Origin: a virus
Lineage: Duplodnaviria; Caudoviricetes
Length of the DNA: 64,000 nucleotides
Virus record (IMG/VR): IMGVR_UViG_3300024346_000005
Strand: one strand, 5' to 3'
Shown piece by piece: positions 1 through 23,919 of this stretch. A program made the translations under genes and the position numbers. How positions within the stretch are numbered: the first letter of the stretch is position 1; each line of letters opens with the position of its first letter. The notes beneath the pieces are model-generated. The model had not been told where the DNA came from. It searched no databases and was given only the letters and a program-made list of their open reading frames with translations.

Positions 1-21
1 TTTGTTAGAATCAGCAACTGC

Positions 22-93
22 TGTGCCAGTTGCCTAAGTGGCACAGAGGGGGTTCCGCTGCCCCCCCTGACCCCTTATAATTGATTCATACCA
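22..93 (+). promoter_or_regulatory. Early promoter module A1 (palindrome + G/C hairpin + TATAAT)
   Basis: TGTGCCA(22-28)-N10-TGGCACA(39-45); G-run/C-run hairpin 46-67; TATAAT 76-81; 24-bp repeat ACCCCTTATAATTGATTCATACCA 70-93. Confidence 0.85.
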
Positions 94-107
94 AGCAACC
101 CCACCAA

Positions 108-425
108 ATGCGTAAGATTGAATCCCTGATGAACGATGCCATCACCAACGGCACTGATTTTCGTTCTGCTAATACTAACGTTGTGCAGGCAGATGGCATC
201 GCTGTTGTATTGCTTCACGGCAACAAGATTGCCGAGGTTGGTGATAATTTCGTCCGATTGTTTGATGGTGGATGGCAGTCTAATACAACCAAATCCCGCC
301 TGAATGCTATTCTTCAGGTTCACGGGATTAAGGGCGAATGTGTATTCCAGAAGAAAGGACAGTGGTTCCTAAATTATGCTGGAAACGGCGTAATTCCTTT
401 CTTCTCAGGTATGCGTCTGGCATAG
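108..425 (+). CDS. Early hypothetical protein (105 aa; LHGNKIA / TTKSRLNA motifs)
   Basis: ATG 108 follows the module A1 leader. The track start at 81 is a TTG inside the -10 box. Confidence 0.8.
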   Translation: MRKIESLMNDAITNGTDFRSANTNVVQADGIAVVLLHGNKIAEVGDNFVRLFDGGWQSNTTKSRLNAILQVHGIKGECVFQKKGQWFLNYAGNGVIPFFSGMRLA

Positions 426-426
426 A

Positions 427-491
427 GTGCCACTCGGGGAACTGGCACAAGGTTCCCCCCAGACCCCCTCCTGACCCCTTATAATAACAGT
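427..491 (+). promoter_or_regulatory. Early promoter module A2
   Basis: GTGCCA(427-432)-N10-TGGCAC(443-448); TATAAT 480-485, 31 nt after TGGCAC. Confidence 0.8.
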
Positions 492-1400
492 ATGAAAAAC
501 ACCCACCTCGAACACCCCGAAGATTCTATCCTGACCGGGGACCTGACCGTTCTGGATTGGTTCGTGAATCCCGGCACCCTAAGTGTAAAGATTGACGGAG
601 CGCCTGCTATTGTTTGGGGCACGAATCCTGCCAACGGTAAGTTCTTTGTTGGCACCAAAAGTGTCTTCAACAAAGTCAAAATCAAAATCTGTTATACTCA
701 AGAAGATGTGTTTGCTCTGTATGGTGAGCAACCCGCACTGATTGAGATTCTAGCGGCATGTCTTAAGTATCTGCCCCGTACAGAGACAATCTATCAGGGA
801 GACTTCATCGGGTTTGGTGGTTCTAATGAGTATACTCCGAACACCATCACTTATAAGTTTTCTGAGATTGTGCGGCAGACTATTATCATCGCACCCCACA
901 CTTGCTATTATGCCGAGAGCGACATTCGTGATGCGGTTGCAATGCCTGACCGTGCCATATGGAATGATACCGACAGCGTAAAGTTTGTCAAACCAGATAC
1001 TTATATCCTTCACAATCAGGAGTCCTTCGCTGATGTTGAGGAAGTGGTAAAGTTTACCCGTGCTATGGCACTTGCTGTAGAGTTTGTTTCTGACAAGCAA
1101 GCAGCAAAGATTAAGAAACAACTGAATGCCTGTATTCGTGCCGGTGATGCTATCATTGCCCAAACGTTTGAGGACTTTGATTGTGACCCTAAACTGATTG
1201 GACTGTGGGCACTAGTGAAGTCAATCAAAGATGATTGTTTGTTCCTGTGCCGCAATAGTGGTCCCGCAGCATACATCAACGGCAACCGTATTGATTCTGA
1301 GGGTTATGTGATGACCAATGAGTTTGGTATGTTCAAACTGGTCAATCGTGAGGTCTTCAGCTATGCTAACTTCAATCACGGGAGGTTTCAGGTCGCATAA
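492..1400 (+). CDS. Conserved phage protein with ligase/nucleotidyltransferase-like motifs (DUF6267-like, 302 aa)
   Basis: Long ORF; KIDG (KxDG motif I), IYQGDF, SEGYV, FKLV resemble ATP-dependent ligase motifs I/III/IV/V. Confidence 0.6.
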   Translation: MKNTHLEHPEDSILTGDLTVLDWFVNPGTLSVKIDGAPAIVWGTNPANGKFFVGTKSVFNKVKIKICYTQEDVFALYGEQPALIEILAACLKYLPRTETIYQGDFIGFGGSNEYTPNTITYKFSEIVRQTIIIAPHTCYYAESDIRDAVAMPDRAIWNDTDSVKFVKPDTYILHNQESFADVEEVVKFTRAMALAVEFVSDKQAAKIKKQLNACIRAGDAIIAQTFEDFDCDPKLIGLWALVKSIKDDCLFLCRNSGPAAYINGNRIDSEGYVMTNEFGMFKLVNREVFSYANFNHGRFQVA

Positions 1401-1415
1401 GCAACACTGATGGTT

Positions 1416-1461
1416 CGGGGGGTTGACCTTCCCCCCTCTGACCCCTTATAATTGATTCATA
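1416..1461 (+). promoter_or_regulatory. Early promoter module A3 (no palindrome, near-consensus -35)
   Basis: TTGACC 1423-1428 in the hairpin loop, 18 nt before TATAAT 1447-1452; shares ACCCCTTATAATTGATTCATA. Confidence 0.8.
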
Positions 1462-1474
1462 AGCAACCCACCCG

Positions 1475-2059
1475 ATGCTCAACACTCTCCAAGTCGCCGC
1501 TCAACTCAAGGTCACCAACTTTGATGCATTTGCCAAACCCGGTAAAAACAAAGGTTCGCGTGGGCAACTGATTGAAACTGCCCTTGGCATTCCTAACAGT
1601 TCCAACCTGAAAGATTTGGTGGACGGTGAACTTAAGACTTTCACAGTTGGTGAGTCTATCGCCGTCACACAGTTGAAGCACTGCCTCTCTGAAATCATCG
1701 AAGACGGTGTTAGTTTCACTGATAGTAAGGTAGGAGAAAAACTATCTCAGACCATCTACGTTGGTTTCACCCGTGCCAATGATTATGTGGGTACTGAGGT
1801 TCTGAATCCTGAGACTCACCCTGAGCACTATCAGGAACTGGCAGAGGATTACACCTTCATTTGTGATACCATCCGCAGTTCATTTGACTCTGGCAGTATA
1901 CTCAACACTATCACCGGACCTAACGGACTGCTGCAAATCCGCACCAAAGCATCTAAAACTAACGGTCGCTATGTTCCTCTGACCTTTGCAAATTGCACCC
2001 TCAAAGATAAGGGTATGGCATTTTACCTCTGTGGCAAGTTCGGGAAGGAGGTCCTGTGA
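1475..2059 (+). CDS. MutH/Sau3AI-like PD-(D/E)XK endonuclease (194 aa)
   Basis: NKGSRGQLIETALG...DLVDGELKT and LQIRTK match the MutH-family pattern KGWxGxLLExxLG...D...ELKT and LQIRPK. Confidence 0.7.
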   Translation: MLNTLQVAAQLKVTNFDAFAKPGKNKGSRGQLIETALGIPNSSNLKDLVDGELKTFTVGESIAVTQLKHCLSEIIEDGVSFTDSKVGEKLSQTIYVGFTRANDYVGTEVLNPETHPEHYQELAEDYTFICDTIRSSFDSGSILNTITGPNGLLQIRTKASKTNGRYVPLTFANCTLKDKGMAFYLCGKFGKEVL

Positions 2060-2126
2060 CAGTCTGACCGCTGGCACACTGGGGGTCCGCTGGCACCCTC
2101 CGACCCCTTATAATTGATTCATACCA
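2055..2126 (+). promoter_or_regulatory. Early promoter module A4
   Basis: TGTGACA(2055-2061)-N10-TGGCACA(2072-2078); TATAAT 2109-2114; 24-bp repeat 2103-2126. The upstream ORF stop TGA lies inside the left arm. Confidence 0.85.
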
Positions 2127-2139
2127 AACAACCCAACCG

Positions 2140-2307
2140 ATGCGAATCGAAGTCCGCTACCAGACCCCCTACAACCAGACCGAGTGGCGCTCCCAGTGGT
2201 TCCCCACCCTTCCCGAAGCGGAGCGGATGGTAGACTTCTACCGCTCCTGCGGGTCACCCTCCCACATCTGCCCCTCATCGCTGGCACAGTTCGCCCACCT
2301 TCAGTAG
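2140..2307 (+). CDS. Early hypothetical protein (55 aa, MRIEVRYQTPYNQTEWRSQWF...)
   Basis: Translated by hand; ATG after the module A4 leader, TAG 2305-2307; below the track length cut-off. Confidence 0.75.
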   Translation: MRIEVRYQTPYNQTEWRSQWFPTLPEAERMVDFYRSCGSPSHICPSSLAQFAHLQ

Positions 2308-2363
2308 TGGCACACAGGGGGCACCTGATGCCCCCTCTGACCCCTTATAATTGATTCATACCA
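2292..2363 (+). promoter_or_regulatory. Early promoter module A5
   Basis: TGGCAC 2308-2313 with degenerate left arm; hairpin CAGGGGGCA...TGCCCCCT; TATAAT 2346-2351; 24-bp repeat 2340-2363. Confidence 0.8.
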
Positions 2364-2378
2364 AACGAACCGACCCGA

Positions 2379-2573
2379 ATGACCCGCAACGCCATCACCG
2401 CTCAGGACCGTGCCGCCCAGTCCCGTGCCATCGCTGCCGCTGCCATCGCTGAGGCAGACCGTAAGGCAGGCACCGCTGATGAGCGTAACCTCAACACCCT
2501 GATAGGTATTCTCACCCTGCCCCGCTGCGGTTGTAATGGTCATCCTGCCTGCCCCCGCTGCGGTTGGATGTGA
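2379..2573 (+). CDS. Small Ala-rich protein with C-terminal Cys/His cluster (64 aa)
   Basis: ORF between modules A5 and A6; ends CGCNGHPACPRCGWM. Confidence 0.75.
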   Translation: MTRNAITAQDRAAQSRAIAAAAIAEADRKAGTADERNLNTLIGILTLPRCGCNGHPACPRCGWM

Positions 2574-2640
2574 CAGTTGCCCTAGTGGCACACGGGGTCT
2601 CCCAGGACCCCTCTCCACCCCTTATAATTGATTCATACCA
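2569..2640 (+). promoter_or_regulatory. Early promoter module A6
   Basis: TGTGACA(2569-2575)-N10-TGGCACA(2586-2592); TATAAT 2623-2628; 24-bp repeat 2617-2640. The upstream stop TGA lies inside the left arm. Confidence 0.85.
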
Positions 2641-2654
2641 CGCAACCCAAGCAA

Positions 2655-2852
2655 ATGCAAATCACTAAAGTCTACGCTGTCATCGGTGGTTTTGATTATG
2701 AAGGTGAGGACTTCAAATCGCTCCGCTTGTTTGACTGCTTCTCCACTGCAAATGCATACCTTGTGTATCTTGAGGAGCAGGAGGGTTATGATTACTCCAA
2801 GATGGATGTTCGGGAGGTGAATATGGAATCGGCACTGCTGTGTGCCGCCTGA
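2655..2852 (+). CDS. Early hypothetical protein (65 aa)
   Basis: ATG 2655 (MQITKVYAVIGGFDYEGE...). The track start 2628 is inside the -10 box. Confidence 0.75.
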   Translation: MQITKVYAVIGGFDYEGEDFKSLRLFDCFSTANAYLVYLEEQEGYDYSKMDVREVNMESALLCAA

Positions 2853-2912
2853 GGCACTGGCACATCGGGTGCCCCTGGCACCCTCTCCACCCCTTATAAT
2901 TGATTCATACCA
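2841..2912 (+). promoter_or_regulatory. Early promoter module A7
   Basis: TGTGCCG(2841-2847)-N10-TGGCACA(2858-2864); TATAAT 2895-2900; 24-bp repeat 2889-2912. Confidence 0.85.
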
Positions 2913-2926
2913 AACAACCCAAGCAA

Positions 2927-3187
2927 ATGACCGTCACCACCTACCAGACCTGCCTGACCGACCAAACTTATAACGGTTGGACCAATTATGAAACCTGGAA
3001 CGTAGCTCTCTGGATTCAGAATGATGCTTGCGTTCAGGATGCTATCGCAGAACGTGATATCTGCTGCTATGAAGAACTGCTTGAATTGATGTATGATTGT
3101 GGTGCCAAAGAGACCCGCGACGGTGTGAAATGGACTGACCCTAAAGTCAACCGCGCAGAAATCAACGGCGACATTTTCGACTTCTAA
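2927..3187 (+). CDS. Early hypothetical protein (86 aa; YNGWTNYETWNVALW motif)
   Basis: ATG 2927 after the leader CAACCCAAGCAA; aromatic-rich motif typical of small phage proteins. Confidence 0.75.
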   Translation: MTVTTYQTCLTDQTYNGWTNYETWNVALWIQNDACVQDAIAERDICCYEELLELMYDCGAKETRDGVKWTDPKVNRAEINGDIFDF

Positions 3188-3193
3188 ATCTCA

Positions 3194-3225
3194 AGTCCTG
3201 GGAGAATGACTCTAAACTTCTCCCA
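3194..3225 (+). ncRNA. Candidate H-type pseudoknot in the 5' leader of ORF 3256
   Basis: S1 AGTC 3194-3197 / GACT 3208-3211; S2 TGGGAGAA 3199-3206 / TTCTCCCA 3218-3225; loops of 1, 1 and 6 nt. Confidence 0.5.
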
Positions 3226-3255
3226 CACTTTCATTAACATTTTTCTTTCTACATT

Positions 3256-3405
3256 ATGTCCCGCGATGTCCTCCTCTCACTCCTTGCTAAGGGTTCCAAT
3301 GGTGAGCAAATTCTCCAGATTCTTGATTCAATTGTTGATGGGGTTTCTGATAGTGTCAGTCCTGATTCCGCTGCTAATCCTACTCTAAGTGAGATTCAGT
3401 TCTGA
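3256..3405 (+). CDS. Small acidic hypothetical protein (49 aa, MSRDVLLSLLAKGSNGEQILQILDSIVDG...)
   Basis: Translated by hand; ATG after a U-rich unstructured spacer; TGA 3403-3405. Confidence 0.6.
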   Translation: MSRDVLLSLLAKGSNGEQILQILDSIVDGVSDSVSPDSAANPTLSEIQF

Positions 3406-3409
3406 TACC

Positions 3410-3480
3410 TAACCAATTGCCAGACTGGCACCGGGTCACCGGGACCGGGACCCCTGACCCTGTAGACTAAAGCATACCAA
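3410..3480 (+). promoter_or_regulatory. Early promoter module A8 (variant)
   Basis: TGGCAC 3426-3431, -10 TAGACT 3463-3468 (31-nt gap kept); leader CATACCAAACGAACCGA. Confidence 0.7.
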
Positions 3481-3495
3481 ACGAACCGAGACCAA

Positions 3496-3675
3496 ATGAC
3501 CGCCTTCAACCCCTACGTCGCAACCCTGATTGAAATGGGATACGATGAGCAGGACTGCCGGAACGTTGCTGCCGCTGGTTTGGATGCCACGTATCCCCGA
3601 ACCATCCACGGGCGGACCTTCCAAACCAAAGCAGAATACGATGAGGCACTGGCAGACTTCCTCAACGGAATCTGA
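3496..3675 (+). CDS. Early hypothetical protein (59 aa, MTAFNPYVATLIEMGYDEQDCR...)
   Basis: Translated by hand; sits between modules A8 and B1. Confidence 0.75.
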   Translation: MTAFNPYVATLIEMGYDEQDCRNVAAAGLDATYPRTIHGRTFQTKAEYDEALADFLNGI

Positions 3676-3718
3676 GGGGTCCTGCCCCCGACCTGCTACA
3701 ATACTATCAACCGCAACC
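3676..3718 (+). promoter_or_regulatory. Early promoter module B1 (extended -10)
   Basis: GGGG/CCCC hairpin, TGcTACAAT (TACAAT 3697-3702); 29-bp perfect repeat 3690-3718 = 3877-3905. Confidence 0.75.
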
Positions 3719-3725
3719 GACCCGA

Positions 3726-3878
3726 ATGACCCGCGCTCTGTTCCCCATCGGATTCTGTGCCCTCTGCCTGATGATTGGCAACGCTGCCCTCTCCACCATC
3801 GGCGCCACACTGGAAGCGGAGCAGGCGGAAATCTGCCACCGTAGCGGTTCGCTGGACTGCCCCCCATTGCCCCGCTGA
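3726..3878 (+). CDS. Small protein with hydrophobic N-terminal segment (50 aa)
   Basis: MTRALFPIGFCALCLMIGNAALSTIGATLEAEQAEICHRSGSLDCPPLPR; translated by hand. Confidence 0.65.
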   Translation: MTRALFPIGFCALCLMIGNAALSTIGATLEAEQAEICHRSGSLDCPPLPR

Positions 3879-3905
3879 CCTGCTACAATACTATCAACCG
3901 CAACC
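3877..3905 (+). promoter_or_regulatory. Early promoter module B2
   Basis: GACCTGCTACAATACTATCAACCGCAACC, identical to 3690-3718; TACAAT 3884-3889. Confidence 0.75.
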
Positions 3906-3912
3906 AATCCCG

Positions 3913-4143
3913 ATGATCCTCAAGGTTACCCGCTTCTCCCGCCGAAACAAGGTCACTCCTATGGTTCAGTTCGTCCGCTTCCCCGAGGGCGTTTCCCCTC
4001 AGATGGGATATCGTCTGTTGGGCAACCCCTCCAACGGAATCAATATCAAGCGGGCAACCGTTGAGCAGGTCGGACCCGATCAGGTCACCAAAACCCCTAA
4101 GGTTTATGATTTGCGGGTCGGACGGGTTCTGACTGCTGCCTGA
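3913..4143 (+). CDS. Early basic hypothetical protein (76 aa)
   Basis: ATG 3913 after the B2 leader, in frame with track ORF 3775..4143. Confidence 0.7.
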   Translation: MILKVTRFSRRNKVTPMVQFVRFPEGVSPQMGYRLLGNPSNGINIKRATVEQVGPDQVTKTPKVYDLRVGRVLTAA

Positions 4144-4170
4144 CCCCTGATCTGCTACAATACTATCAGT
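4141..4170 (+). promoter_or_regulatory. Early promoter module B3
   Basis: TGcTACAATACTATCAG; TACAAT 4156-4161. Confidence 0.7.
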
Positions 4171-4189
4171 TCCACCGACACCGACCCCG

Positions 4190-4354
4190 ATGACCTCTGC
4201 CGAACTGACCGCTGCCATTGCCTCCGGAGAATTCAAGGTCACCCGCCTGCCCCGCCGTGGTCCCCGTCCCGGTCAGGCAGCGATGACCCGTAAAGAGGAC
4301 CTTGCTGCCCGCCACCTTGAGCGCCGCATTAAGCAGGGGTGGGTTTCCCTCTGA
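4190..4354 (+). CDS. Early basic hypothetical protein (54 aa, MTSAELTAAIASGEFKVTRLPRRG...)
   Basis: Translated by hand; between B3 and B4. Confidence 0.7.
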   Translation: MTSAELTAAIASGEFKVTRLPRRGPRPGQAAMTRKEDLAARHLERRIKQGWVSL

Positions 4355-4384
4355 CCCCATTCCATGCTATGATTCTCTCAGTTC
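4336..4384 (+). promoter_or_regulatory. Early promoter module B4
   Basis: TGcTATGAT (4368-4373); TATGATTCTCTCAGTTC 4368-4384 identical to 4689-4705. Confidence 0.7.
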
Positions 4385-4401
4385 CAAACCAACCAACACC
4401 G

Positions 4402-4647
4402 ATGGCACTCTTCTCTCCAGCAACCGACCTTCAGACCCGCCAGACCGTATGGGTCTCCCGCAACGTTTCCAAGGGTCGCCCGCAACTCAACTCCCACCGT
4501 GATGATGTGCTGGGTCGCTCCATGGAGTCCGATGGTCTATCCGCCGTTGAGTTGGCAGACCTTCACACCCCGTTCGTGGGTTGGCAGGGTCCGGGTCATC
4601 AGTTCTACTGTAACCCCGAAGCAAAGCGCCTGACCTGGTTGGGGTGA
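4402..4647 (+). CDS. Early hypothetical protein (81 aa)
   Basis: ATG 4402 after an A/C-rich leader, in frame with track ORF 4339..4647. Confidence 0.7.
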   Translation: MALFSPATDLQTRQTVWVSRNVSKGRPQLNSHRDDVLGRSMESDGLSAVELADLHTPFVGWQGPGHQFYCNPEAKRLTWLG

Positions 4648-4654
4648 GTTCGTG

Positions 4655-4705
4655 GGGGTGGGGTTCGTTCCCTGCCCCCGATTCGTGGTATGATTCTCTC
4701 AGTTC
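4655..4705 (+). promoter_or_regulatory. Early promoter module B5
   Basis: G/C hairpin 4655-4679, TGgTATGAT (4689-4694). Confidence 0.7.
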
Positions 4706-4722
4706 ACAAGCAACCGACCCTC

Positions 4723-4935
4723 ATGCGTAACCCCCTCTACACCGTCATCATCTGGCAGGACGTACCGAGCAGCGCCTGCTCTGAACTCCGCCTTCGCTTC
4801 CGGAAGCGCAATATCACCGTCTTCTGGCGGTCGGGTCACCTCAGCACCCATACCGTCCGCCGCCGTGATATGCTCCGCCTGCTCAATCCGCAGCAGAGCG
4901 TTGGGCAGTGGTTGAACCGTTATGCTCTGGGGTGA
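4723..4935 (+). CDS. Early Arg-rich hypothetical protein (70 aa)
   Basis: ATG 4723 after the B5 leader, in frame with track ORF 4690..4935. Confidence 0.65.
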   Translation: MRNPLYTVIIWQDVPSSACSELRLRFRKRNITVFWRSGHLSTHTVRRRDMLRLLNPQQSVGQWLNRYALG

Positions 4936-4960
4936 CCCTCTGGTCGTTCCTGGTCTGGTT

Positions 4961-4999
4961 GGGGTTCTGACCCCATTCGTGCTACAATTCACTCAGTTC
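4961..4999 (+). promoter_or_regulatory. Early promoter module B6
   Basis: GGGG-TTCTGA-CCCC hairpin, TGcTACAAT (4983-4988). Confidence 0.7.
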
Positions 5000-5015
5000 A
5001 CACCCCCCCCCCATC

Positions 5016-5282
5016 ATGGCACTTCACAACCAACACACCGCCATCGGTCATCTGGGTTCCGGCGCCGATGGCGTTCGTGCCTCTATGGCAGTCAACTCTG
5101 CCAACGGTTCGGGGCGTGGCATGACCCTGACCCCCGTAACCGGTCTGGGTCGGCAGTGGGTCGGAGACAAGACCACCAACGCCCAACGCTTCGCCGCTCA
5201 GGCAAAGGCAGACCGAATTGCCGCTGCCCGTGACCGCCGCCTGAATGGGGTGGGTCACTCCCCGCTCGCTGCCCGCTTCTGA
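5016..5282 (+). CDS. Early Gly/Ala-rich hypothetical protein (88 aa)
   Basis: Track ORF starting after the B6 leader; last gene of the GC-rich array. Confidence 0.7.
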   Translation: MALHNQHTAIGHLGSGADGVRASMAVNSANGSGRGMTLTPVTGLGRQWVGDKTTNAQRFAAQAKADRIAAARDRRLNGVGHSPLAARF

Positions 5283-5288
5283 GCGGGT

Positions 5289-5323
5289 TGGTCGTTCGTG
5301 CCGGGGCAGTCTGGTCGTTCGTG
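5289..5323 (+). repeat. 12-bp direct repeat TGGTCGTTCGTG
   Basis: Copies at 5289-5300 and 5312-5323; partial copy TGGTCGTTC at 4941-4949. Confidence 0.7.
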
Positions 5324-5490
5324 TGGGGACAGTGCCCATGGCGCGGTGCCGACCCCCCGCCGCCCCGTATATAAAAACGCCTAACTACCCTAACCTACAA
5401 AGTGTTACGGAAGCGAGAGATGTATAAACACCAAACATAAAAAAATTTTTCGCTATATAAAAAATAAAATAAAGTTTTATAAACACGAAA

Positions 5491-5661
5491 ATGAAAAAAA
5501 ATTCCGAGGAAATTTTCGAGTCCATACAAGTTGATCCAATTACCGGGCAATATTTTTTAATAATCCCCGAACAAATTATGAACGAACTTTCTTGGTATGA
5601 AGATACCGAAGTCAAGTTTTTATTGGATGGTAAAGATGTGATTCTTTCCGAAAACGATTGA
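5491..5661 (+). CDS. AbrB/MazE (swapped-hairpin)-like DNA-binding protein (56 aa)
   Basis: MKKNSEEIFESIQVDPITGQYFLIIPEQIMNELSWYEDTEVKFLLDGKDVILSEND; the IPxxIxxxLxWxxxTEV pattern fits AbrB-like proteins. Not in the track. Confidence 0.6.
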   Translation: MKKNSEEIFESIQVDPITGQYFLIIPEQIMNELSWYEDTEVKFLLDGKDVILSEND

Positions 5662-5690
5662 TTGACAACTGATATATAATGTTGTATGAT
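5662..5690 (+). promoter_or_regulatory. Consensus sigma70-type promoter
   Basis: TTGACA 5662-5667, N17, TATGAT 5685-5690. Confidence 0.8.
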
Positions 5691-5712
5691 ACTGAAGTAA
5701 CTACTTACTATT

Positions 5713-6471
5713 ATGGCTAAAGGATTTACCGTTAAAGCATCTGCCCCCGTAGCAGCAAATAAAGAATTAGAATGGGATTACGATCTAGCAAGGGAAATGG
5801 TACGAGGCAAATCAATTGTCTTTTGTCTTCCCGGAAGAGGAGTCTCCTATACATATCTGAAAAGTTTTGTTCAATTGTGCTTTGATCTTGTACAGAACGG
5901 TGCAAGCATTCAAATCTCACAAGACTATTCATCCATGGTAAACTTTGCACGATGCAAATGTTTGGGTGCGAATGTACTCAGAGGTCCAAATCAACTTCCC
6001 TGGGATGGAAAACTCAATTATGATTGGCAACTTTGGATTGACTCTGATATTGTCTTCAATAGTGAAAAGTTTTGGCAATTAGTTCTTATGGACAAAGATA
6101 TTGCATCTGGATGGTATGCAACCGAAGACGGGCATACAACCTCAGTGGCACACTGGATGGAAGAAGATGATTTCCGCAATAATGGTGGAGTCATGAATCA
6201 TGAGACCGTCGATAGCATCTCCAAGCGTCGCAAACCATTCACAGTTGATTATGCAGGATTTGGTTGGTTACTGATTAAGAAAGGAGTCTTCGAGCACTCG
6301 GAGATGACATATCCATGGTTTGCACCAAAGATGCAAGTCTTTGAATCTGGAGAAGTTCAGGATATGTGTGGAGAAGATGTATCATTCTGTTTGGATGCAA
6401 AAGAAGCAGGATTTGAGATTTGGTGCGACCCTCGTATTAGAGTCGGTCACGAAAAGACAAGAGTAATTTGA
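5713..6471 (+). CDS. GT-A fold glycosyltransferase-like protein (252 aa)
   Basis: LWIDSDIVF DxD motif, GFGWLLIKKGVFE, GEDVSFCLDA, RVGHEK: GT2-like signature. Confidence 0.7.
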   Translation: MAKGFTVKASAPVAANKELEWDYDLAREMVRGKSIVFCLPGRGVSYTYLKSFVQLCFDLVQNGASIQISQDYSSMVNFARCKCLGANVLRGPNQLPWDGKLNYDWQLWIDSDIVFNSEKFWQLVLMDKDIASGWYATEDGHTTSVAHWMEEDDFRNNGGVMNHETVDSISKRRKPFTVDYAGFGWLLIKKGVFEHSEMTYPWFAPKMQVFESGEVQDMCGEDVSFCLDAKEAGFEIWCDPRIRVGHEKTRVI

Positions 6472-6635
6472 TGACTAACGAATCTTACAATATAATCTGT
6501 AAGGGTCGTAAAATTTATTCTAATCTTACAGAAGAAGAATACTTCAATACTATGGAGGATCTGTCCGTACAATTTTATCAGACGGGTTCTCCAAATCCAA
6601 ATGAAATTGAAACTGAAATTATAGGAGAAAATTAA
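6471..6635 (+). CDS. Small acidic hypothetical protein (54 aa)
   Basis: ATG overlaps the upstream TGA; MTNESYNIICKGRKIYSNLTEEEYF... Confidence 0.65.
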   Translation: MTNESYNIICKGRKIYSNLTEEEYFNTMEDLSVQFYQTGSPNPNEIETEIIGEN

Positions 6636-6787
6636 TGGCAATTAAAAAATCATCAGGTGGTGGTGGGAAGCAAGTAATTGAATCTCTCCCCAAGAAAACT
6701 AAGCAAGGTTGTGGTGCTCATACTAAGTATGCGGCATCTTCTCGTAATAAAGCTCGTAAGAAATACAGGGGACAAGGTAAAAAATGA
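6635..6787 (+). CDS. Small highly basic protein (50 aa)
   Basis: TAATG coupling and GGAG upstream; MAIKKSSGGGGKQVIESLPKKTKQGCGAHTKYAASSRNKARKKYRGQGKK. Confidence 0.7.
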   Translation: MAIKKSSGGGGKQVIESLPKKTKQGCGAHTKYAASSRNKARKKYRGQGKK

Positions 6788-7275
6788 ATCCATTGCTTTT
6801 CATTTCTGAAGATAAAGAAAAGGCACTAATTCAACAAATAACTTATCTCATTCAAGTATCGGAGATTGATATTCATCCTTCCGATACTTGTTTTTTAATG
6901 GTTTCTCCCGATTATTCCGCAATTGTGACACAACATCTTTCACATTCTTTAAGTATGGATGGAGAAATATTTCATATAGAATCAGTTAATGTTCCATTTC
7001 CGGATGAAAATGTAAACGAATATCGTAAAGATTTTATTGAAAACTATTTAAAGTGGTCAAAACAGTGGAAAAAATTTGTTTTAATTGAGGCAGGAGTTAT
7101 AAGAGGAGGTAATTATAAATGGATTACGGATATAATTGACAAAAAATACTATACAGTAGCATTATGTGAGAATATTCATAGTAAATTTAAAAGTGATTTT
7201 GTCTCGTTATACTATGATGATAGTAAAGTAGACCTTCATTTTTGGTGGGAAAGACCAAATAATCATTGGAGATAA
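6784..7275 (+). CDS. Phosphoribosyltransferase-fold protein (163 aa)
   Basis: FVLIEAGVIRGGNY resembles a degenerate PRPP-binding loop (hhhhDDhhxxGGT). Confidence 0.5.
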   Translation: MNPLLFISEDKEKALIQQITYLIQVSEIDIHPSDTCFLMVSPDYSAIVTQHLSHSLSMDGEIFHIESVNVPFPDENVNEYRKDFIENYLKWSKQWKKFVLIEAGVIRGGNYKWITDIIDKKYYTVALCENIHSKFKSDFVSLYYDDSKVDLHFWWERPNNHWR

Positions 7276-7307
7276 TAGACTAAATATTTTTTTTACATAA
7301 AATTTAG

Positions 7308-7649
7308 TTGAAACAGCATTCGATGGGAACTCATCTCCTTTTGGAGGTGTATGATGTTAAATTTAACCTCTTAAATGACGTAATATCTCTCCAAGAAACA
7401 ATGGAGAAGGGTATTAATCGTGCAAATATGACTATTTTGAATATTTTTTCTCATTGTTTTTTTCCTCAAGGATGTACTATTGTTATTGCACTCTCAGAAA
7501 GTCATGTTTCTTGCCACACCTGGCCTGAAAATGGTTGTATAGCAATTGATGTCTATACTTGTGGTGAAGGAAATCCTAGACTAGTTGCAATTGAATTATT
7601 AAAATATCTAAATTCTGATAATTACAATCTTCGAGAAGTAAATCGTTAA
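7308..7649 (+). CDS. speD: S-adenosylmethionine decarboxylase proenzyme family
   Basis: HLLLEVY, ALSE-SHVSCHTWPE (pyruvoyl-forming Ser), IDVYTCG; late promoter CTAAATA 7280-7286. Alternative start ATG 7323. Confidence 0.9.
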   Translation: MKQHSMGTHLLLEVYDVKFNLLNDVISLQETMEKGINRANMTILNIFSHCFFPQGCTIVIALSESHVSCHTWPENGCIAIDVYTCGEGNPRLVAIELLKYLNSDNYNLREVNR

Positions 7650-7657
7650 ATAGTAAT

Positions 7658-7708
7658 AGGAGATAGAAACCTCCTTTATAAAAGTTCTGTTTTAAATTAA
7701 AACAGGAG
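7658..7708 (+). promoter_or_regulatory. Two-hairpin leader overlapping the SD of ORF 7716
   Basis: AGGAG 7658-7662 / CTCCT 7671-7675; CTGTTTTA 7687-7694 / TAAAACAG 7698-7705; SD AGGAG 7704-7708; TAAATA 7647-7652. Confidence 0.45.
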
Positions 7709-7715
7709 TTTCAAA

Positions 7716-7892
7716 ATGCTATTCGAATCAGAAGAAAATCAAAAAAGACTCATTCAAGAAGTGGTCTATGATGTTGCACCGAAGCATAACCTAAAAAAAC
7801 AAGTTGAACTGCACGAAAAAATTCGTAATGATGAAGACTATGATGATTGGTCTTATGGAACAGAACCAAACTATGGTTCTTCCTGGAAGTAG
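7716..7892 (+). CDS. Small acidic hypothetical protein (58 aa)
   Basis: AGGAG SD, ATG 7716, TAG 7890-7892; translated by hand. Confidence 0.65.
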   Translation: MLFESEENQKRLIQEVVYDVAPKHNLKKQVELHEKIRNDEDYDDWSYGTEPNYGSSWK

Positions 7893-7920
7893 GTATAAAT
7901 AAATAAAAAACTTTCGTTCG

Positions 7921-8322
7921 ATGGCAATTCAAAGGATATCCAGATCATTCAAAGATATCAGTTTATCCTTTGAACCACATCCAGTGACAAAGGATCTGCC
8001 GATACTAAAGAATGAAAATGCAATTCGTAGATCAGTAAGAAATATTGTAGAAACTATTCCAACGGAAAGATTCTTCAATTCACTCTTAGGATCTGATATT
8101 ACAAAAAGTTTATTTGAATTTGTTGATTTTGGTACTGCATCAGTAATACAAAGTCAAATTGAAATATCCATTAATAACTTTGAACCAAGAGTTAATAATG
8201 TAGAAGTTCAGGTAGATCCTATTCCAGATGATAATACCTTTAATGTAACAATTATTTTTGATATTATAGGGCAAGAATTTCCAACTCAAGAATATTCATT
8301 CATACTAGAGGCAACAAGATAA
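7921..8322 (+). CDS. gp25: Baseplate wedge subunit gp25
   Basis: SFKDISLSF...AIRRSVRNIV...ERFFNSLLGS...FEPRV; synteny with gp6. Confidence 0.9.
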   Translation: MAIQRISRSFKDISLSFEPHPVTKDLPILKNENAIRRSVRNIVETIPTERFFNSLLGSDITKSLFEFVDFGTASVIQSQIEISINNFEPRVNNVEVQVDPIPDDNTFNVTIIFDIIGQEFPTQEYSFILEATR

Positions 8323-8323
8323 A

Positions 8324-10198
8324 ATGCCTTTTACTAAATTTACAAATCTAGATTTCGATCAGATAAAGACATCCATTAAAGATTATCTCCGTGCCAACTC
8401 CACATTCACGGATTTTGACTTTGAGGGATCTAATTTTTCTGTACTAATAGACACGCTAGCATATAATACCTATATTACCTCATTCAACTCGAATATGGTT
8501 GTGAACGAATCCTTTCTGGATTCTGCAACTGTTCGTGAAAATGTTGTTTCACTAGCAAGAAATATCGGTTACGTACCTCGCTCCAGGACGGCAGCAAAGG
8601 CACAAATATCATTTAATATCCCCACAACCGCAACTCCCACACTTACCTTACAGAAAGGTCTAGTCTGTATAGGTTCTGTAGATAATACTTCATACACATT
8701 TTCAATCCCAGACAACATATCATCAAATGTTGTAGACGGAGCAGCATCTTTTAATAATATTAATATCTATCAAGGAACATTTTTAACTAAACAATTTACA
8801 GTAGATGGATCTCTGGATCAAAGATTTATTTTAAACAACTCATTTATTGATACTTCCACCATCTCAGTCTATGTGAAGGGAATTAATGATAGTGGTCTTG
8901 GAGTAGAATATTCTTCTGTTGATAATATTCTTAATGTAGATTCATCCTCAAGAATATATCTCCTACAAGAAGTTCAAGATGAAAAATATGAATTACTTTT
9001 CGGTGATGGACTGATTGGAAAAAAATTAGAAAACAATTCAGTAATTACAGTAAATTATATTGTTACCGATGGTGAAGATGGTAATGGTGCTTCTTCATTT
9101 TCTTTTGCCGGGAGCACTAGTCCAAATAGTGAAACAGGTTCGGTCTCTGTTATAACGAATCAGTCATCTCAAAATGGTTCTGAAATAGAATCCATAGATT
9201 CTGTCAAATATTTTGCCCCAAGAATTTATTCCTCCCAATATAGAGCAGTAACATCAAGAGATTATGAGGCAATTATAAAAAAAATATATCCAGATACCGA
9301 ATCAGTTGCTGTTATTGGAGGTGAGGAATTAGATCCACCAGAATTTGGTACAGTATCAATAAGTATTAAACCAAAAAATGGAACTTTTGTTTCCGATTTT
9401 AATAAAGAACAAATTAAAAATAAATTAAAGCAATATAGTATTTCTGGAATTAATCAAAAAATAATTGATCTTAAGATATTATATGTAGAAATTGATTCAT
9501 CAATTTATTACAACTATGCTCAAGTATCGGCAGTAGAATCATTGAAAACAAAAATTATAAATTCATTGACAGAATATTCCGATTCTGTGGATCTCAATTC
9601 ATTTGGTGGAAGATTTAAATATAGTAAGGTTCTTCAAATAATTGACAATACTGATATTGCTATAACTTCTAATATCACTAAGGTTAGAATTAGAAGAGAT
9701 TTGAAAGCGCAGATAAACCAGTTTGCACAATATGAACTATGCTTTGGAAATAAATTTCATATCAATAGTGGCGGTTTTAATATTAAAAGCACTGGATTTA
9801 AAATTTCTGCAGATTCGGATACCGTATATCTAACAGATGTACCTAATAGCGATGGAAAAACTGGAATACTATCAATAGTAAAACCTTTAAGCGATGGAAC
9901 TACAAGAATAGTTGCAAAATCTTCCGGAACAGTTGATTATGTGAAAGGTGAAATTAAATTGGGAACCATAAACATTATTTCAACATCTAAAGAAAATGAT
10001 ATTATCGAAATACAGGCATTCCCAGAATCTAATGATGTTCTTGGACTAAAAGATTTATATTTAAATTTTAGTATTTCAAAAAGCACAATAAATATGGTAA
10101 GAGATGTAGTTGCCTCCGGTGATGAAATATCAGGTACATTATTTGCCAGAGACTATTATACATCAAGTTATTCAAACGGGAATTTAATAAGAGCATAA
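8324..10198 (+). CDS. gp6: Baseplate wedge subunit gp6
   Basis: LDFDQIKTSIKDYL...FEGSNFSVLIDTLAYNT; RAVTSRDYEAII. Confidence 0.92.
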   Translation: MPFTKFTNLDFDQIKTSIKDYLRANSTFTDFDFEGSNFSVLIDTLAYNTYITSFNSNMVVNESFLDSATVRENVVSLARNIGYVPRSRTAAKAQISFNIPTTATPTLTLQKGLVCIGSVDNTSYTFSIPDNISSNVVDGAASFNNINIYQGTFLTKQFTVDGSLDQRFILNNSFIDTSTISVYVKGINDSGLGVEYSSVDNILNVDSSSRIYLLQEVQDEKYELLFGDGLIGKKLENNSVITVNYIVTDGEDGNGASSFSFAGSTSPNSETGSVSVITNQSSQNGSEIESIDSVKYFAPRIYSSQYRAVTSRDYEAIIKKIYPDTESVAVIGGEELDPPEFGTVSISIKPKNGTFVSDFNKEQIKNKLKQYSISGINQKIIDLKILYVEIDSSIYYNYAQVSAVESLKTKIINSLTEYSDSVDLNSFGGRFKYSKVLQIIDNTDIAITSNITKVRIRRDLKAQINQFAQYELCFGNKFHINSGGFNIKSTGFKISADSDTVYLTDVPNSDGKTGILSIVKPLSDGTTRIVAKSSGTVDYVKGEIKLGTINIISTSKENDIIEIQAFPESNDVLGLKDLYLNFSISKSTINMVRDVVASGDEISGTLFARDYYTSSYSNGNLIRA

Positions 10199-10199
10199 T

Positions 10200-13100
10200 A
10201 TGATACAGACTGGGTTCGAATCTAGAGTTAAGGTTCAGCAAGTTATTGAAAATCAACTTCCAAACTTTATTTTGGATGAAAGTCCAAATACGGCAGAATT
10301 TTTAAAGCAATATTATATTTCTCAAGAATATCAAGGTGGTGTAGTTGATATTGCAGAAAATTTAGATCAATATTTGAAATTAGATAATCTAACTCCAGAA
10401 GTTGTAGTTGATAGTACGATACTTACAATAGGAATCACAACAACATCAAATATTATTACAGTAAGTAGTACTAAAGGTTTTCCTCAAACTTATGGTTTAT
10501 TGAAGATTGATGATGAAATTATTACATATACCGGAATAACCACAAATACATTTACAGGATGTGTTCGTGGGTTTAGTGGCATTACTAATTATCATTCAAA
10601 TTCAAATCAAGAAGAATTAGTATTTTCAGAATCGATATCTACATTTCATAGTGCTGGATCATCCGTACAAAATCTAAGTTCTTTATTCTTAAAAGAGTTT
10701 TATAAAAAAATAAAATACACTTTTACTCCAGGTCTGGAAGAAGTTGATTTTGTATCAAATTTAAATGTTGGTAATTTTATAAAGGAAGCAAGATCATTTT
10801 ATCAGGCAAAGGGGACTGACGAATCATTTAGAATTTTATTTAATATTTTATATGGAGTAACTCCTCTGGTAGTAAATTTAGAGGAGTTTTTAATTAAACC
10901 ATCTTCGGCAGAATTTATAAGAAGAGAAATTGTAATTGCAGAAAGAATTTCTGGAGATCCTTCTAAATTGGTAGGTCAAACAATTCAGAAATTTAATGAT
11001 GAGAGCACTAGTGCCTCAATTTCTGAAGTAGAACTATTTACCAGAAATAATATACAATATTTTAAGATTTCACTTTTTGTTGGATATGAAAATTTTTCCG
11101 CTGTTCTTGGAAATTTTACAATTACTCCAAATACAAAAAGTCTAAAAAATGTTGCCATCGGGTCGTCAGTAATTTCAGTAGACTCTACAATAGGATTTGC
11201 TGGAATTGGAACCATCATATCTGGAATTAATACTATCACTTATACAAGTAAGAGTATTAATCAGTTTTTTGGATGTACTGGAATTACATCTTCAATTTTA
11301 TCATCTGCCGATATAAGATCTGATGAAATTTATTTTGGATATGAAAATGGAGATTTGGATAAAAAAGTTGAGTTAAGACTTACGGGAGTATTATCTAAAT
11401 TTGTTCAAGTATCAGATACTTTAAATTTGGATGAAGGGCAAAAAATATCAGTTAAAAATATTGGGGATTTGATTCAAAATCCGCAGCAGAATAAGACATA
11501 TAAAGAAATATTTGCAAATTCGTGGATATACAATACTGGATCTAGATATGAAATAGAAAATATCAGTAATTTTACTTTAAAAAGTCCAATTGACAGGTCT
11601 AGTTTAAAAATTGGAGATGAAGTAGAAATTTTAGAAAAAAATAGTAATGTTGTAGTTTCATCTTCTGGTGCATATATTTCGGATATTATATCTTCACAAA
11701 ATAGAGTTATTATATATAATTTAAACTTCACGGCAGAAAATGGAGTGAAGTATGATTTAAGAAGAAAAATTAATACCGCAAACAGTACAGTAGTTCCAAT
11801 AGAATTTGGAAATAATGTTATTTTATCAGATATTCAAAATTTATATACTGATGATGAGTATGCCTATGTAGCTTCTAACTCATTACCATCGGGTAGAGAT
11901 GGATATGATGGAAATTTTACATATAAAATAACAAAAGATATTAAAACATCAGTTGGAATAGGAACTGCTGATGTAATAGATAACAACTACACAAGTATAG
12001 TATTTCAAAATCCAGTTCCATTTATCACTGGCGATAGAATTTACTATCAACCATCAGGAACACCTATTGTTGGATTAGATACTGGAGATTATTATGTACA
12101 AGTTCTAGATCCATCTAATAAAATAAGATTATATTCATCATTATCATTTGTTGGAACTGATAATTTCTTAACATTTTCAAATTCAAATTTTGCCAATCAA
12201 ACTCATAGATTTACATTATATTCTCAGAAATCTGGTATAATTGGTGCTCAAAAATTACTCAAAAAATTTCCATTATCTGAAAGTATCGATACTGGAACTG
12301 GAGAATTAACAATTCCAGGTTCAGTCGGAATGTTAATTAATGGTGTTGAAGTTAATAGTTATAAATCTAATGATAAAGTATACTATGGTCCTTTAAAATC
12401 TATTAGTGTATTAAATGGTGGAATAGACTATGATGTTATTAATCCCCCATCAATATCCGTTTCTTCTGGAATTGGATCTACAGCATTAGTTAGACCAGTA
12501 GTTGGTGGGTCAATTAAAAAAGTTTACATCGATTCTCAAGACTATGATATCAATACAATTGTATCTATTGGTGTAACTGGTGGTAATGGGTCTGGTTGCG
12601 TATTAGAACCCATTCTTACGAAGAGAAGAAGAGATATTTTCTTCGATGGAAGATTGACCACAAATTCTGGGGGAATTAGTTCAACGACAAATCAATTGTC
12701 ATTTTTAACGAATCACAATTTAAGCAATGGGGAATTAGTAGTTTACAATTCTAATGGAAATTCTTCAATTGGTATTGGTACTACAAATTTAACTTTAGTA
12801 AATAATGCCACATATTATTCTAAAGTTGATAATAACAGAACTATCAGACTTTATCAGTCCAATTCTGATTATCAGTCGGGAATTAATACTATCAAATTTA
12901 ATGGAATTAGTGCCGGAGGAATACATAAGTTTTCTACTGCATCATTTAAAAATACCATATCAGAGATTAAAATATTAAATGGTGGGAATGGATATACAAA
13001 TAGAGAGTTAATTGTTTCTTCAACAGGAATATCCACAATAAACTACACGATTAGTTTCGAAAATCATGGATTTAAGAGTGGAGAACTTGTAACTTATCAA

Positions 13101-22340: not shown

Positions 22341-22359
22341 ATACTTAAAAAATATCAAT

Positions 22360-23919
22360 ATGGCGGCAATAGTAACGGATCAATTTAGAATATTAAATGC
22401 AAGTAATTTTATAGATTCTGTAACTGGTGGTAACGATTCTTACTATGTTTTTTTGGGTTTGGACAATCCAGTACAAGATGCATTTGGAAGAACTACTGAT
22501 TGGAACACCAATGCCCCAAATCCAACAGATAATTTGAAATATTCCTCACACTATAGAGATACATCTTTATTTGGTAAAAAAATTACATCTAGTAATATTA
22601 GAAGACTTATAAGAAAAGTTACTTGGACTTCTAATACATCATATGAGATGTATAGGCACGATTATAGCATTCAGAATCCAACACCAAATTCAAATTCAAG
22701 TAGATTATATGATTCTAATTATTATGTAATTAATAGTGATTTTAGAATTTATATTTGTATAGATAATGGTTCTTCTGGAACTAGTTTGAAAGGTGGCAAA
22801 TCCCAAGATGAGCCCACATTTACAGATTTGGAACCTTCAGCAGCGGGAACAAGTGGAGATGGTTATATTTGGAAATATCTCTTTTCAGTTTCTCCCAGTG
22901 ATATTATAAAGTTTGATTCGACAGAATATGTTGTTGTTCCTAATGATTGGAAAACATCAACAGATTCTCAAATTGTAAGTGTAAGGGAAAATGGAAATTC
23001 TGGACCTACAAATCCAAATCAAATTAAGAAAGTATATATTGCATCTGGTGGCGGTGGATATAGTGAAGTTGTAAAAACTGTTGATATTCTTGGTGATGGA
23101 GTTGGCGGCAGAGTTTCTATAAAAGTAAGTGGCGGAAAAATTACTGAAACTCAAGTTGTTGCAGGTGGTTATGGATATACTTGGGGAATTGTTGATTTAG
23201 GAAGTCTTCAACCTATAGACAGTCTTCAAAATCCAGCAAAACTAATACCAATCATTCCACCATCAAAGGGGCATGGTTACGACATTTATACCGAATTGGG
23301 AACAGATAAGGTATTGGCATATGCCAGATTTGACGATTCAACTAAAGATTTTCCAACGGACACTAAATTTGCTCAAGTTGGAATTATAAAAAATCCAACT
23401 ACATTTTCTTCGGATACTGTTGTTTTTACAGAAAATCAGTATTCATCACTATATGCAGGAATTACTACATCAATTAGTGGAAATCCAGTTATTGGAGAGG
23501 AAATTGAACAAACCAGAGCAGATGGAAAAATTGCAAAGGGATATGTAGCTTCATATGACAGTGAAACTAAAGTTTTAAAATATTTTAGGGATAGATCTTT
23601 ATATTTCGGTAGTATAAATGAAGATGAAACTGATTATAATACAGTTAGTGCAGATTCTAATGTATATGACTTCCAATCTAATGGTGGAAATATTGTAAGT
23701 GTAAATGGAACATTTACCGCATCTATAGACACGTCATTTAATGCCAATAAGGTTACGGTTGGAGGTAAAGTTATAGACTTGGGGGTAACTTTTACAGAAG
23801 GTCTTGCAAATCCTGAGATAAATAAAAAGACAGGAGATATAATTTATATTGATAATAGACCCCTGGTAACAAGAGACATTAGGCAAAAAGAAGACATTAA
23901 AATTATCCTGGAATTCTAA
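22360..23919 (+). CDS. gp8: Baseplate wedge subunit gp8
   Basis: Start MAAIVTDQFRILNA after late promoter 22336; GYIWKYLF; IIYIDNRP...DIKIILEF. Confidence 0.9.
   Translation: MAAIVTDQFRILNASNFIDSVTGGNDSYYVFLGLDNPVQDAFGRTTDWNTNAPNPTDNLKYSSHYRDTSLFGKKITSSNIRRLIRKVTWTSNTSYEMYRHDYSIQNPTPNSNSSRLYDSNYYVINSDFRIYICIDNGSSGTSLKGGKSQDEPTFTDLEPSAAGTSGDGYIWKYLFSVSPSDIIKFDSTEYVVVPNDWKTSTDSQIVSVRENGNSGPTNPNQIKKVYIASGGGGYSEVVKTVDILGDGVGGRVSIKVSGGKITETQVVAGGYGYTWGIVDLGSLQPIDSLQNPAKLIPIIPPSKGHGYDIYTELGTDKVLAYARFDDSTKDFPTDTKFAQVGIIKNPTTFSSDTVVFTENQYSSLYAGITTSISGNPVIGEEIEQTRADGKIAKGYVASYDSETKVLKYFRDRSLYFGSINEDETDYNTVSADSNVYDFQSNGGNIVSVNGTFTASIDTSFNANKVTVGGKVIDLGVTFTEGLANPEINKKTGDIIYIDNRPLVTRDIRQKEDIKIILEF

Follow-up and report, generated by a model that had tools for sequence, protein, structure and literature searches.

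A putative PeSL-type array of small-gene cassettes in a T4-like cyanomyovirus

Promoter-early stem-loop (PeSL) repeats have been described in the T4-like phages RB49/phi1, T4/PST and KVP40/nt-1 (Arbiol 2010, PMC2839356; Comeau 2014, PMC4122927). A PeSL unit consists of an upstream stop codon, an AT-rich tract, the -35 and -10 boxes of a sigma-70 promoter, a poly-G/poly-C stem-loop, a Shine-Dalgarno sequence and an ATG. The units precede ORFans in hyperplastic regions, and their promoter and terminator activity was demonstrated. Recombination between units yields insertions and deletions (indels) and mini-circles, the latter found in RB49 by inverse PCR (PMC2839356, PMC4122927). Hyperplastic regions are also known from cyanomyoviruses, as in the 'ORFanage' of S-PM2 (Puxty 2015, PMC4503421; Clokie 2010 review, PMC2984593). 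Few PeSL-like elements were seen in S-PM2 and the mechanism was judged unlikely there (Puxty 2015, PMC4503421), the only mention of PeSLs in cyanophages found in the literature searched. The IMG/VR virus record IMGVR_UViG_3300024346_000005 was analysed over a stretch of 64,000 nucleotides, the window. Positions 22-5282 hold an array of small genes, nearly all preceded by a repeated module. The comparison with related phages suggests that this is most probably a PeSL-type array, with the repeated modules as recombination homology that shuffles early-gene cassettes. Such cassettes are known for the coliphage RB49 and have not yet been described for cyanophages.

Architecture of the array

The array makes up the hyperplastic region of small genes in a large T4-like cyanomyovirus related to S-SRM01 and P-SSM2, which together with S-SKS1 are the isolates nearest to the window. 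The phage is AT-rich, with 28-38% GC along most of the window, and the array is located just upstream of the baseplate genes (gp25, gp6). It comprises 15 consecutive + strand open reading frames (ORFs) of 49-302 amino acids (aa). The GC content is 46-48% from position 1 to ~2060 and 53-59% from there to 5370, and changes abruptly to that of the AT-rich backbone at ~5370. The features, all on the + strand and in window coordinates, are the following.

22-107: module 1, type A; palindrome TGTGCCA-N10-TGGCACA (22-45), G/C hairpin (~48-66), TATAAT (76-81), C/A-rich leader
108-425: cassette ORF F03, 105 aa, Kyano_Gp96 (PF23790)
426-491: module 2, type A; TGGCACA (443-449) in the loop of a hairpin GGGGAAC..GTTCCCC, -10 box 480-485
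492-1400: cassette ORF F10, 302 aa, DUF6267 (PF19782), KIDG motif
1401-1474: module 3, type A variant; hairpin GGGGGG..CCCCCC, no TGGCACA, -10 box 1447-1452
1475-2059: cassette ORF F15, 194 aa, phrog_15364, weakly MutH-like; absent from relatives L025 and L006
2055-2139: module 4, type A, overlapping the stop at 2057
2140-2307: cassette ORF F05, 55 aa, third-position GC content (GC3) 0.84, no family match; at another array position in L011 and L022
2308-2378: module 5, type A; hairpin GGGGGCA..TGCCCCC
2379-2573: cassette ORF F07, 64 aa, Cys-rich C-terminus; absent from L015
2569-2654: module 6, type A, overlapping the stop at 2571
2655-2852: cassette ORF F02, 65 aa, phrog_17343
2841-2926: module 7, type A, overlapping the last codons and stop at 2850; hairpin GGGTGCC..GGCACCC
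2927-3187: cassette ORF F01, 86 aa, DUF7249 (PF23907), the most widely shared cassette
3188-3255: AT-richer spacer, probable divergent module; hairpin GGGAGAA..TTCTCCC, pyrimidine-rich leader
3256-3405: cassette ORF F35, 49 aa
3406-3495: module 9, with a CTGACCCTGTAGACT promoter that is also present in S-RIM44
3496-3675: cassette ORF F08, 59 aa, phrog_649
3676-3725: module 10, type B; extended -10 box TGCTACAAT at 3694-3702
3726-3878: cassette ORF F17, 50 aa, hydrophobic N-terminus
3876-3912: module 11, type B, sharing a 29-mer with module 10
3913-4143: cassette ORF F26, 76 aa, phrog_9180
4141-4189: module 12, type B; TGCTACAAT at 4153-4161
4190-4354: cassette ORF F18, 54 aa
4352-4401: module 13; TGCTATGAT at 4365-4373
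4402-4647: cassette ORF F09, 81 aa, N-terminal motif RQTVWVS, in common with family F06 of relatives
4648-4722: module 14; strong G/C hairpin (~4654-4680), TGGTATGAT at 4686-4694
4723-4935: cassette ORF F19, 70 aa, phrog_7365
4936-5015: module 15; repeat CTGGTCGTTCCTG, TGCTACAAT at 4980-4988
5016-5282: cassette ORF F27, 88 aa, rich in Ala, Arg and Gly
5283-5370: GC-rich end piece with two 23-nt tandem units (TGGTCGTTCGTG...)

The repeats on which a sequence-only reading of the window had been built are exact. Perfect copies of the 24-mer ACCCCTTATAATTGATTCATACCA start at 70, 2103, 2340, 2617 and 2889, and a sixth copy at 1441 has 3 mismatches; the expected count in shuffled sequences is 0, placing the repeats far above chance. 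Both copies of the 29-mer (3690, 3877) and of the 17-mer (4368, 4689) are identical. A module does precede 14 of the 15 ORFs, and upstream stop codons lie inside or against the next module at 2057, 2571, 2850, 3876, 4141 and 4352. Four ORF starts were corrected by one base, to 2655, 2927, 3913 and 4723. The fifteenth ORF, at 3256, follows the AT-richer hairpin variant with its pyrimidine-rich leader, a spacer that resembles the units of S-SRM01 and is probably a divergent module of their kind.

Seven modules up to 2926 are of type A. They begin with the end of the upstream ORF and its stop, often within TGTG(C/A)C(A/G)-N10-(G/C)TGGCACA, and TGGCACA is often the 3' arm of a 24-bp palindrome. 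There follow a G/C hairpin, TC(T/C)(G/C)ACCCC, TATAAT, TGATTCATACCA, a C/A-rich leader and the ATG. The hairpin, of 6-8 G/C base pairs between TGGCACA and the -10 box, is present in ~30 of 42 distinct type A modules and is built from at least six stem sequences (GGGGGCA/TGCCCCC, GGGTGCC/GGCACCC, GGGGTC/GACCCC, GGGGGG/CCCCCC, GGCACC/GGTGCC and GGAGGG/CCCTCC). Modules after 2926 have TGTAGACT or the extended -10 boxes TGCTACAAT, TGCTATGAT and TGGTATGAT, with scant upstream structure. Over 14 ORFs, CCTTATAAT is used seven times, TGCTACAAT four times and TGTAGACT, TGCTATGAT and TGGTATGAT once each. The -10 box ends 21-28 nt 5' of the ATG for 13 ORFs, and the leaders of 18-20 nt are C/A-rich (38% A, 45% C, 10% G). 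At the ORF at 492, the DUF6267 gene F10, the gap is 6 nt (window site 480-494). All relatives (L025, L015, L006, L003, L022, L024 and L030) have the same 6-nt gap irrespective of their promoter type, and the F10 mRNA is probably leaderless.

The array shares with PeSLs the repeated units before single small ORFs in a hyperplastic region of a T4-like phage (14-15 units for 15 ORFs), as well as the stem-loop. Also shared are indels, replacements and promoter swaps between relatives that are bounded by repeats and leave chimeric junctions. The promoter part is different. A -35 box was not found at 16-18 nt from the -10 box, and the leaders contain neither a Shine-Dalgarno sequence nor a GGAG-like run. 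Instead of an AT-rich upstream tract there is a C-rich one, in which TGGCACA precedes the -10 box by a fixed 36-37 nt with the hairpin between. The hairpins of the array are without T tails, the hosts are cyanobacteria, and the whole array stands out as GC-rich from an otherwise AT-rich genome. RB49 units have demonstrated promoter and terminator activity and yield mini-circles; in the array all three are putative. The S-PM2 ORFanage is likewise a block of small, dispensable and mostly unknown genes and carries the same TGGCACA-hairpin-TATAAT units within 5093-22989. The window array differs from it by one unit per gene and by direct comparative evidence of shuffling.

A sigma-70 promoter of canonical form is located beyond the array at 5662-5690 (TTGACA, 17 nt, TATGAT). 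In contrast to the array promoters it has a -35 box. It precedes the first backbone gene (5713-6471), a phrog_1574 member with a distant glycosyltransferase match.

Turnover of cassettes and modules in related phages

An exact 21-mer was found in 26 stretches from 24 IMG/VR contigs. Module-led ORFs were grouped into ~35 families and mapped over at least 12 arrays. The six orders below are given 5' to the backbone.

Window: F03 F10 F15 F05 F07 F02 F01 F35 F08 F17 F26 F18 F09 F19 F27, then backbone
L025: F34 F03 F10 F05 F07 F02 F01 F35 F08 F13 F18 F09 F19, then backbone
L015: F03 F10 F15 F05 F02 F01 F35 F11 F08 F12 F13 F16 F18 F09 F23, then backbone
L006: F10 F05 F07 F02 F01 F35 F08 F09, then backbone
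L011: F02 F05 F01 F35 F23 F17 F06 F18, then backbone
L020: F02 F01 F35 F22 F21 F14 F06, then backbone

Presence, identity and order of cassettes differ in more than 10 related contigs, and cassette content is combinatorial across these phages. F05, F22, F23 and F32 occupy more than one array position. F35 adjoins F01 in arrays holding both, except in L012 and L023, where F24 lies between them.

The sequence-only reading had predicted that such changes would end in modules, and they do. All of the ~24 breakpoints in window coordinates are in a module or at most 10 nt from a start or stop codon; modules with a 10-nt margin make up ~27% of the region. Breakpoints are at 1478|2071, 3725|4359 and 4952|5289 against L025, at 2363|2583, 3489|3492, 3734|4174 and 4725|5288 against L015, and at 3702 against L006. 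Contigs of two runs add 3501|3685, 3879|4152 and 4939|5361.

Four junctions are clean. Ahead of F02, L015 has a chimeric module that joins 5' sequence of window module 5 to 3' sequence of module 6; a crossover between these two modules with loss of F07 would give this product. L015 also has a 170-nt unit, ORF F11 with a new promoter, inserted just before the ATG of F08, and an identical leader end, CGACCCG(A)ATGA, flanks the unit on either side. Related strains cleanly skip the F26 cassette (3879 to 4152) at a 17-nt core common to modules 11 and 12. Cassette 15 (F27) is bounded by TGGTCGTTC(C/G)TG repeats. The 23-nt tandem units that close the array (5289-5333) and their third copy in module 15 (4940-4965) delimit an indel, and F27 is absent from L025 and one RNA-library contig. 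F08 is replaced by 162 unrelated nt in contigs from the RNA-library runs X19 and X20.

One X19 contig joins window position 1391 to 205 and thus 'goes back', the reverse of the window order. At the joint, 184 other letters separate the F10 end from a diverged copy of F03 (84% identical). A rearranged strain or a tandem copy may account for it; a circle is less likely.

Modules and ORFs reassort separately. In different phages, F10 is found behind TATAAT, TACAAT or GTGCCATACT, F15 behind TATAAT or GTGTCATACT, and F05 behind TATAAT or TGTAGAAT. Identities of ORFs and their modules are discordant: 90% for the ORF and 77% for the module of F07 (window vs L025), 90% and 69% for F05 (window vs L015), and 75% and 89% for F03 (window vs L025). 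The idea that each cassette brings its own expression signals does not agree with these data. Four modules of L025 have CCCTATAAT where all window counterparts have CCTTATAAT, which suggests concerted evolution by exchange among modules of one genome. Modules are best regarded as shared linkers and not as the property of one cassette.

An assembly chimera was considered for the GC-rich block and rejected, since the GC-rich/AT-rich junction recurs in many independent contigs. More than 10 diverged contigs, including 234-kb and 236-kb genomes, join a GC-rich array to the same AT-rich genes as in the window: a small DNA-binding-like ORF, a 252-aa phrog_1574 protein, AdoMet decarboxylase, gp25 and gp6. 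Window positions 1-3293 are matched at 100% identity by two contigs from other samples. Contig L009, 100% identical over its overlap with the window, places the beginning of the array ~280 nt 5' of the window start and adds one degenerate module and a 74-aa ORF; further upstream it has tightly packed small ORFs without modules. Short-read assemblies of DNA runs break at modules, as repeats do. The habitat labels of the runs are mixed ('marine' for DNA runs, 'freshwater' for RNA runs). That the small ORFs are genuine genes is shown by the differences among orthologues of the window, L025, L006, L015 and L011, which fall 84/56/179 by codon position. The changed codons comprise 132 synonymous and 109 non-synonymous cases.

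The TGGCACA element, mechanism and alternatives

TGGCACA occurs 14 times in the window, against 4.7 expected. Over all loci, a TAnnnT hexamer starts 36-37 nt after TGGCACA in 95 of 207 distinct contexts, forming a sharp peak. Whole records were scanned for TGGCACA-N28-31-TAnnnT, taking hits on the richer strand, with the reversed pattern as control. The 233.9-kb relative G001 has 24 hits, P-SSM2 13, S-SRM01 10, Syn9 9, S-PM2 8 (seven of them in the ORFanage) and S-SKS1 7, with 0 control hits in each. The pattern is not enriched in S-RIM44, with 2 hits vs 1 in the control. The spacing looks like a lineage-wide promoter design of cyanomyoviruses, and the same module design is located at the same genomic place in S-SRM01, S-RIM44, P-SSM2 and S-SKS1. 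Near-identical TGGCACA-hairpin-TATAAT units are present in S-PM2 (NC_006820, 8590-8632 and 9870-9911) and S-SRM01 (NC_070963, 54660-54701 and 57344-57385), and in L003. The sharing of units by the ORFanage of the marine S-PM2 and the freshwater S-SRM01 fits a relationship of the ORFanage to freshwater phages that had been suggested earlier.

The 5' arm of the palindrome is variable, with C-to-A changes that create TGA stops, while the 3' arm is TGGCACA throughout, and compensatory changes are absent. A pure RNA stem is therefore not favoured, and TGGCACA seems to be an element of sequence (about -49 to -43) and not only one half of a stem. We tentatively suggest, at less than even confidence, that TGGCACA-N(~30, usually with a hairpin)-TAnnnT is an undescribed bipartite class of cyanomyovirus promoters. 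In this class, a host factor or an RNA polymerase contact would recognise the -49 to -43 element, which would substitute for the -35 box. The GC and C enrichment of the array would then be a regional state, of adaptive origin or driven by recombination. No description of the element was found in the literature searched, which did not cover the Syn9 transcriptome and S-PM2 genome papers, and an earlier description may exist. A full-text search for TGGCACA with 'cyanophage' retrieved a PCR primer only.

As a PeSL-type array, the locus would work through its composite repeat. Stop codon, TGGCACA, G/C hairpin, -10-only or extended -10 promoter and C/A-rich leader would part each gene from the next. 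Host RNA polymerase would start at every unit soon after infection, and the hairpin would damp read-through, making each gene an insulated unit; we infer promoter activity, terminator activity and early timing alike. The comparison indicates that the 20-90 bp of identity between units are the homology for recombination. Recombination deletes, inserts, replaces and reorders genes and swaps promoters between them, producing a combinatorial repertoire of cassettes in the manner of the PeSL repeats of RB49 and phi1. Both the architecture (stop, G/C stem-loop, promoter, leader, ATG) and the module-bounded breakpoints support the proposal of PeSL-type shuffling.

Several observations weigh against it. 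A scan for canonical sigma-70 promoters and terminators gave only one match among the modules, a chance TTGACC in module 3; the modules fail the promoter scan because they are without a -35 box. The window hairpins are followed by a C/T tract and no T run. Given the failed scan and the missing T tails, promoter strength and termination are therefore putative. RNAalifold found no consensus structure for 39 modules, because the hairpin register varies between them. Folding was performed per module instead, and the hairpin folds had a mean z-score of -1.4 vs shuffles; z-scores of whole-module folds are only modest, in GC-rich sequence. In the type B modules (3676-4401) the hairpin is weak or absent, and their cassettes may not be insulated. 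In its favour, the homologous units that relatives carry in AT-rich DNA take the form of an intrinsic terminator, with a run of T immediately 5' of the -10 box (GAGGGTCCTCAAGACCCTC-TTTTTTT-G-TATAAT is one case); termination within the window array is plausible but may be leaky. The RNA-library contigs cannot show transcript starts or ends, and no circles were seen in contigs of the public runs. Selection alone would also leave breakpoints between genes.

This last point fits a rival explanation, an ordinary small-gene cluster with promoters kept alike by selection to one strong consensus. Its repeats would have no role in recombination, and differences in content would be due to illegitimate recombination filtered by selection, which predicts intergenic breakpoints. 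The genome-wide use of the TGGCACA-N30 -10 design in relatives, beyond the array, agrees with it. The junction sequences weigh more than the breakpoint positions here, because selection alone also favours intergenic breakpoints, and they make this explanation unlikely. Exact runs of 24-43 nt include the leader and positions without a known promoter role, and junctions in shared runs give chimeric modules. The same substitution is present in several paralogous modules of one genome, and modules and ORFs have discordant histories. The sequence-only reading had also compared the locus with integrons. In that case the hairpins would be attC-like sites cut by a dedicated site-specific recombinase, with cassettes moving as circles. 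A one-directional array of short single-gene units with hairpins at structured borders and variable content resembles an integron, the 'goes back' joint could derive from a circle, and a stem-loop-recognising protein was speculated upon for PeSLs (PMC2839356). This analogy did not hold and is hardly probable at all. No integrase or recombinase Pfam family was matched in called genes within 6 kb of three related arrays; among the window's own proteins the scan extended to 6.5 kb. Hairpins differ in sequence and register and have no conserved attC core. Breakpoints are spread over palindrome, hairpin, -10 box, leader and ATG and not confined to a single site, every cassette has its own promoter, and modules reassort independently of ORFs. 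The diverged F03 copy in the 'goes back' joint fits a rearranged strain better than a circle.

The base composition raises a further alternative, a recent insertion from a GC-rich phage or host that brought the repeats along without a continuing role. GC3 is 0.55-0.84 in cassettes 4-15, except for the AT-richer cassette 8 (3256-3405) with 0.36, compared with 0.24 in backbone ORFs. In the proteins of cassettes 4-15, Ala and Arg are doubled and Lys and Ile halved relative to the backbone, and the boundary at ~5370 is abrupt. The array spacers are C-rich (36% C, 18% G). Against an insertion, a GC-rich array is located at the same place in many diverged relatives, including the 236-kb genomes, and its module design is common to AT-rich cyanomyoviruses. 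Core cyanomyovirus genes within the array (F03, F10) are themselves GC3-shifted. F10 has a GC3 of 0.44-0.55 in the clade of the window vs 0.30-0.31 in P-SSM2 and S-SRM01, and resident conserved genes are up by 0.15-0.25 relative to the orthologues of these phages. The backbone gene adjoining the array stays at 0.26-0.38, so the enrichment is regional and not only imported. A recent foreign origin of the block is very unlikely. The enrichment may be caused by host-like codons, with which the first phage proteins are made without rare host tRNAs or phage tRNAs (for context, PMC3152331, PMC11726456). It may also reflect G-poor unstructured mRNAs suiting initiation without Shine-Dalgarno, or GC-biased gene conversion in a recombination hot spot. 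No tRNA genes were found in the window.

Cassette proteins and implications

Eight cassette families had matches, all to families of unknown function: F03 to Kyano_Gp96, F10 to DUF6267, F01 to DUF7249, F15 to phrog_15364, F02 to phrog_17343, F08 to phrog_649, F26 to phrog_9180 and F19 to phrog_7365. The other cassette ORFs had no family match. The MutH match of F15 is weak (NCBIfam E 2e-6, far below cut-off), and sequence searches of the PDB with F10 and F15 gave nothing useful. F10 has an invariant KIDG motif. An AlphaFold prediction from 8 sequences reached a pLDDT of 42.5 and no usable model, and an Atlas search gave a weak RNA_ligase lead only (score 0.78), from which F10 may be a ligase-like nucleotidyltransferase. 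For F09, tblastn against isolate phages gave no match. It shares the N-terminal motif ..L(Q/K)(T/D)RQTVWVS.. with F06 of L003, L011, L018, L020 and L027. Both are near the distal array end, at most three cassettes from the backbone, and probably constitute one diverged family.

Two families were noted outside the window. F13 is not in the window and is located at 7386-7607 in L015 and 4360-4581 in L025. It has a weak HicA toxin match (Pfam E 0.0045, below cut-off) and is solitary, with no obvious HicB partner. A homologue of F27 at 1768-2019 in L029 directly follows a DEAD-box helicase gene in a tightly packed operon of a different phage, so this small gene occurs in both forms, with a module of its own and without one.

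If correct, the reading as a PeSL-type array extends this kind of shuffling from enterobacterial and Vibrio T4-like phages to the ecologically dominant cyanomyoviruses. The array would offer a concrete source of turnover in small unknown genes. These are candidates for host takeover or counter-defence, functions that we infer only. It would also offer a promoter and leader of compact design that lack both the -35 box and the Shine-Dalgarno sequence, and the fixed TGGCACA element is directly testable in the laboratory-grown phages Syn9 and S-PM2. Loss of host tRNAs blocks Syn9 (PMC11726456), which makes the question of the GC island topical: the island is relevant to the expression of the first genes of AT-rich phages in hosts rich in GC.

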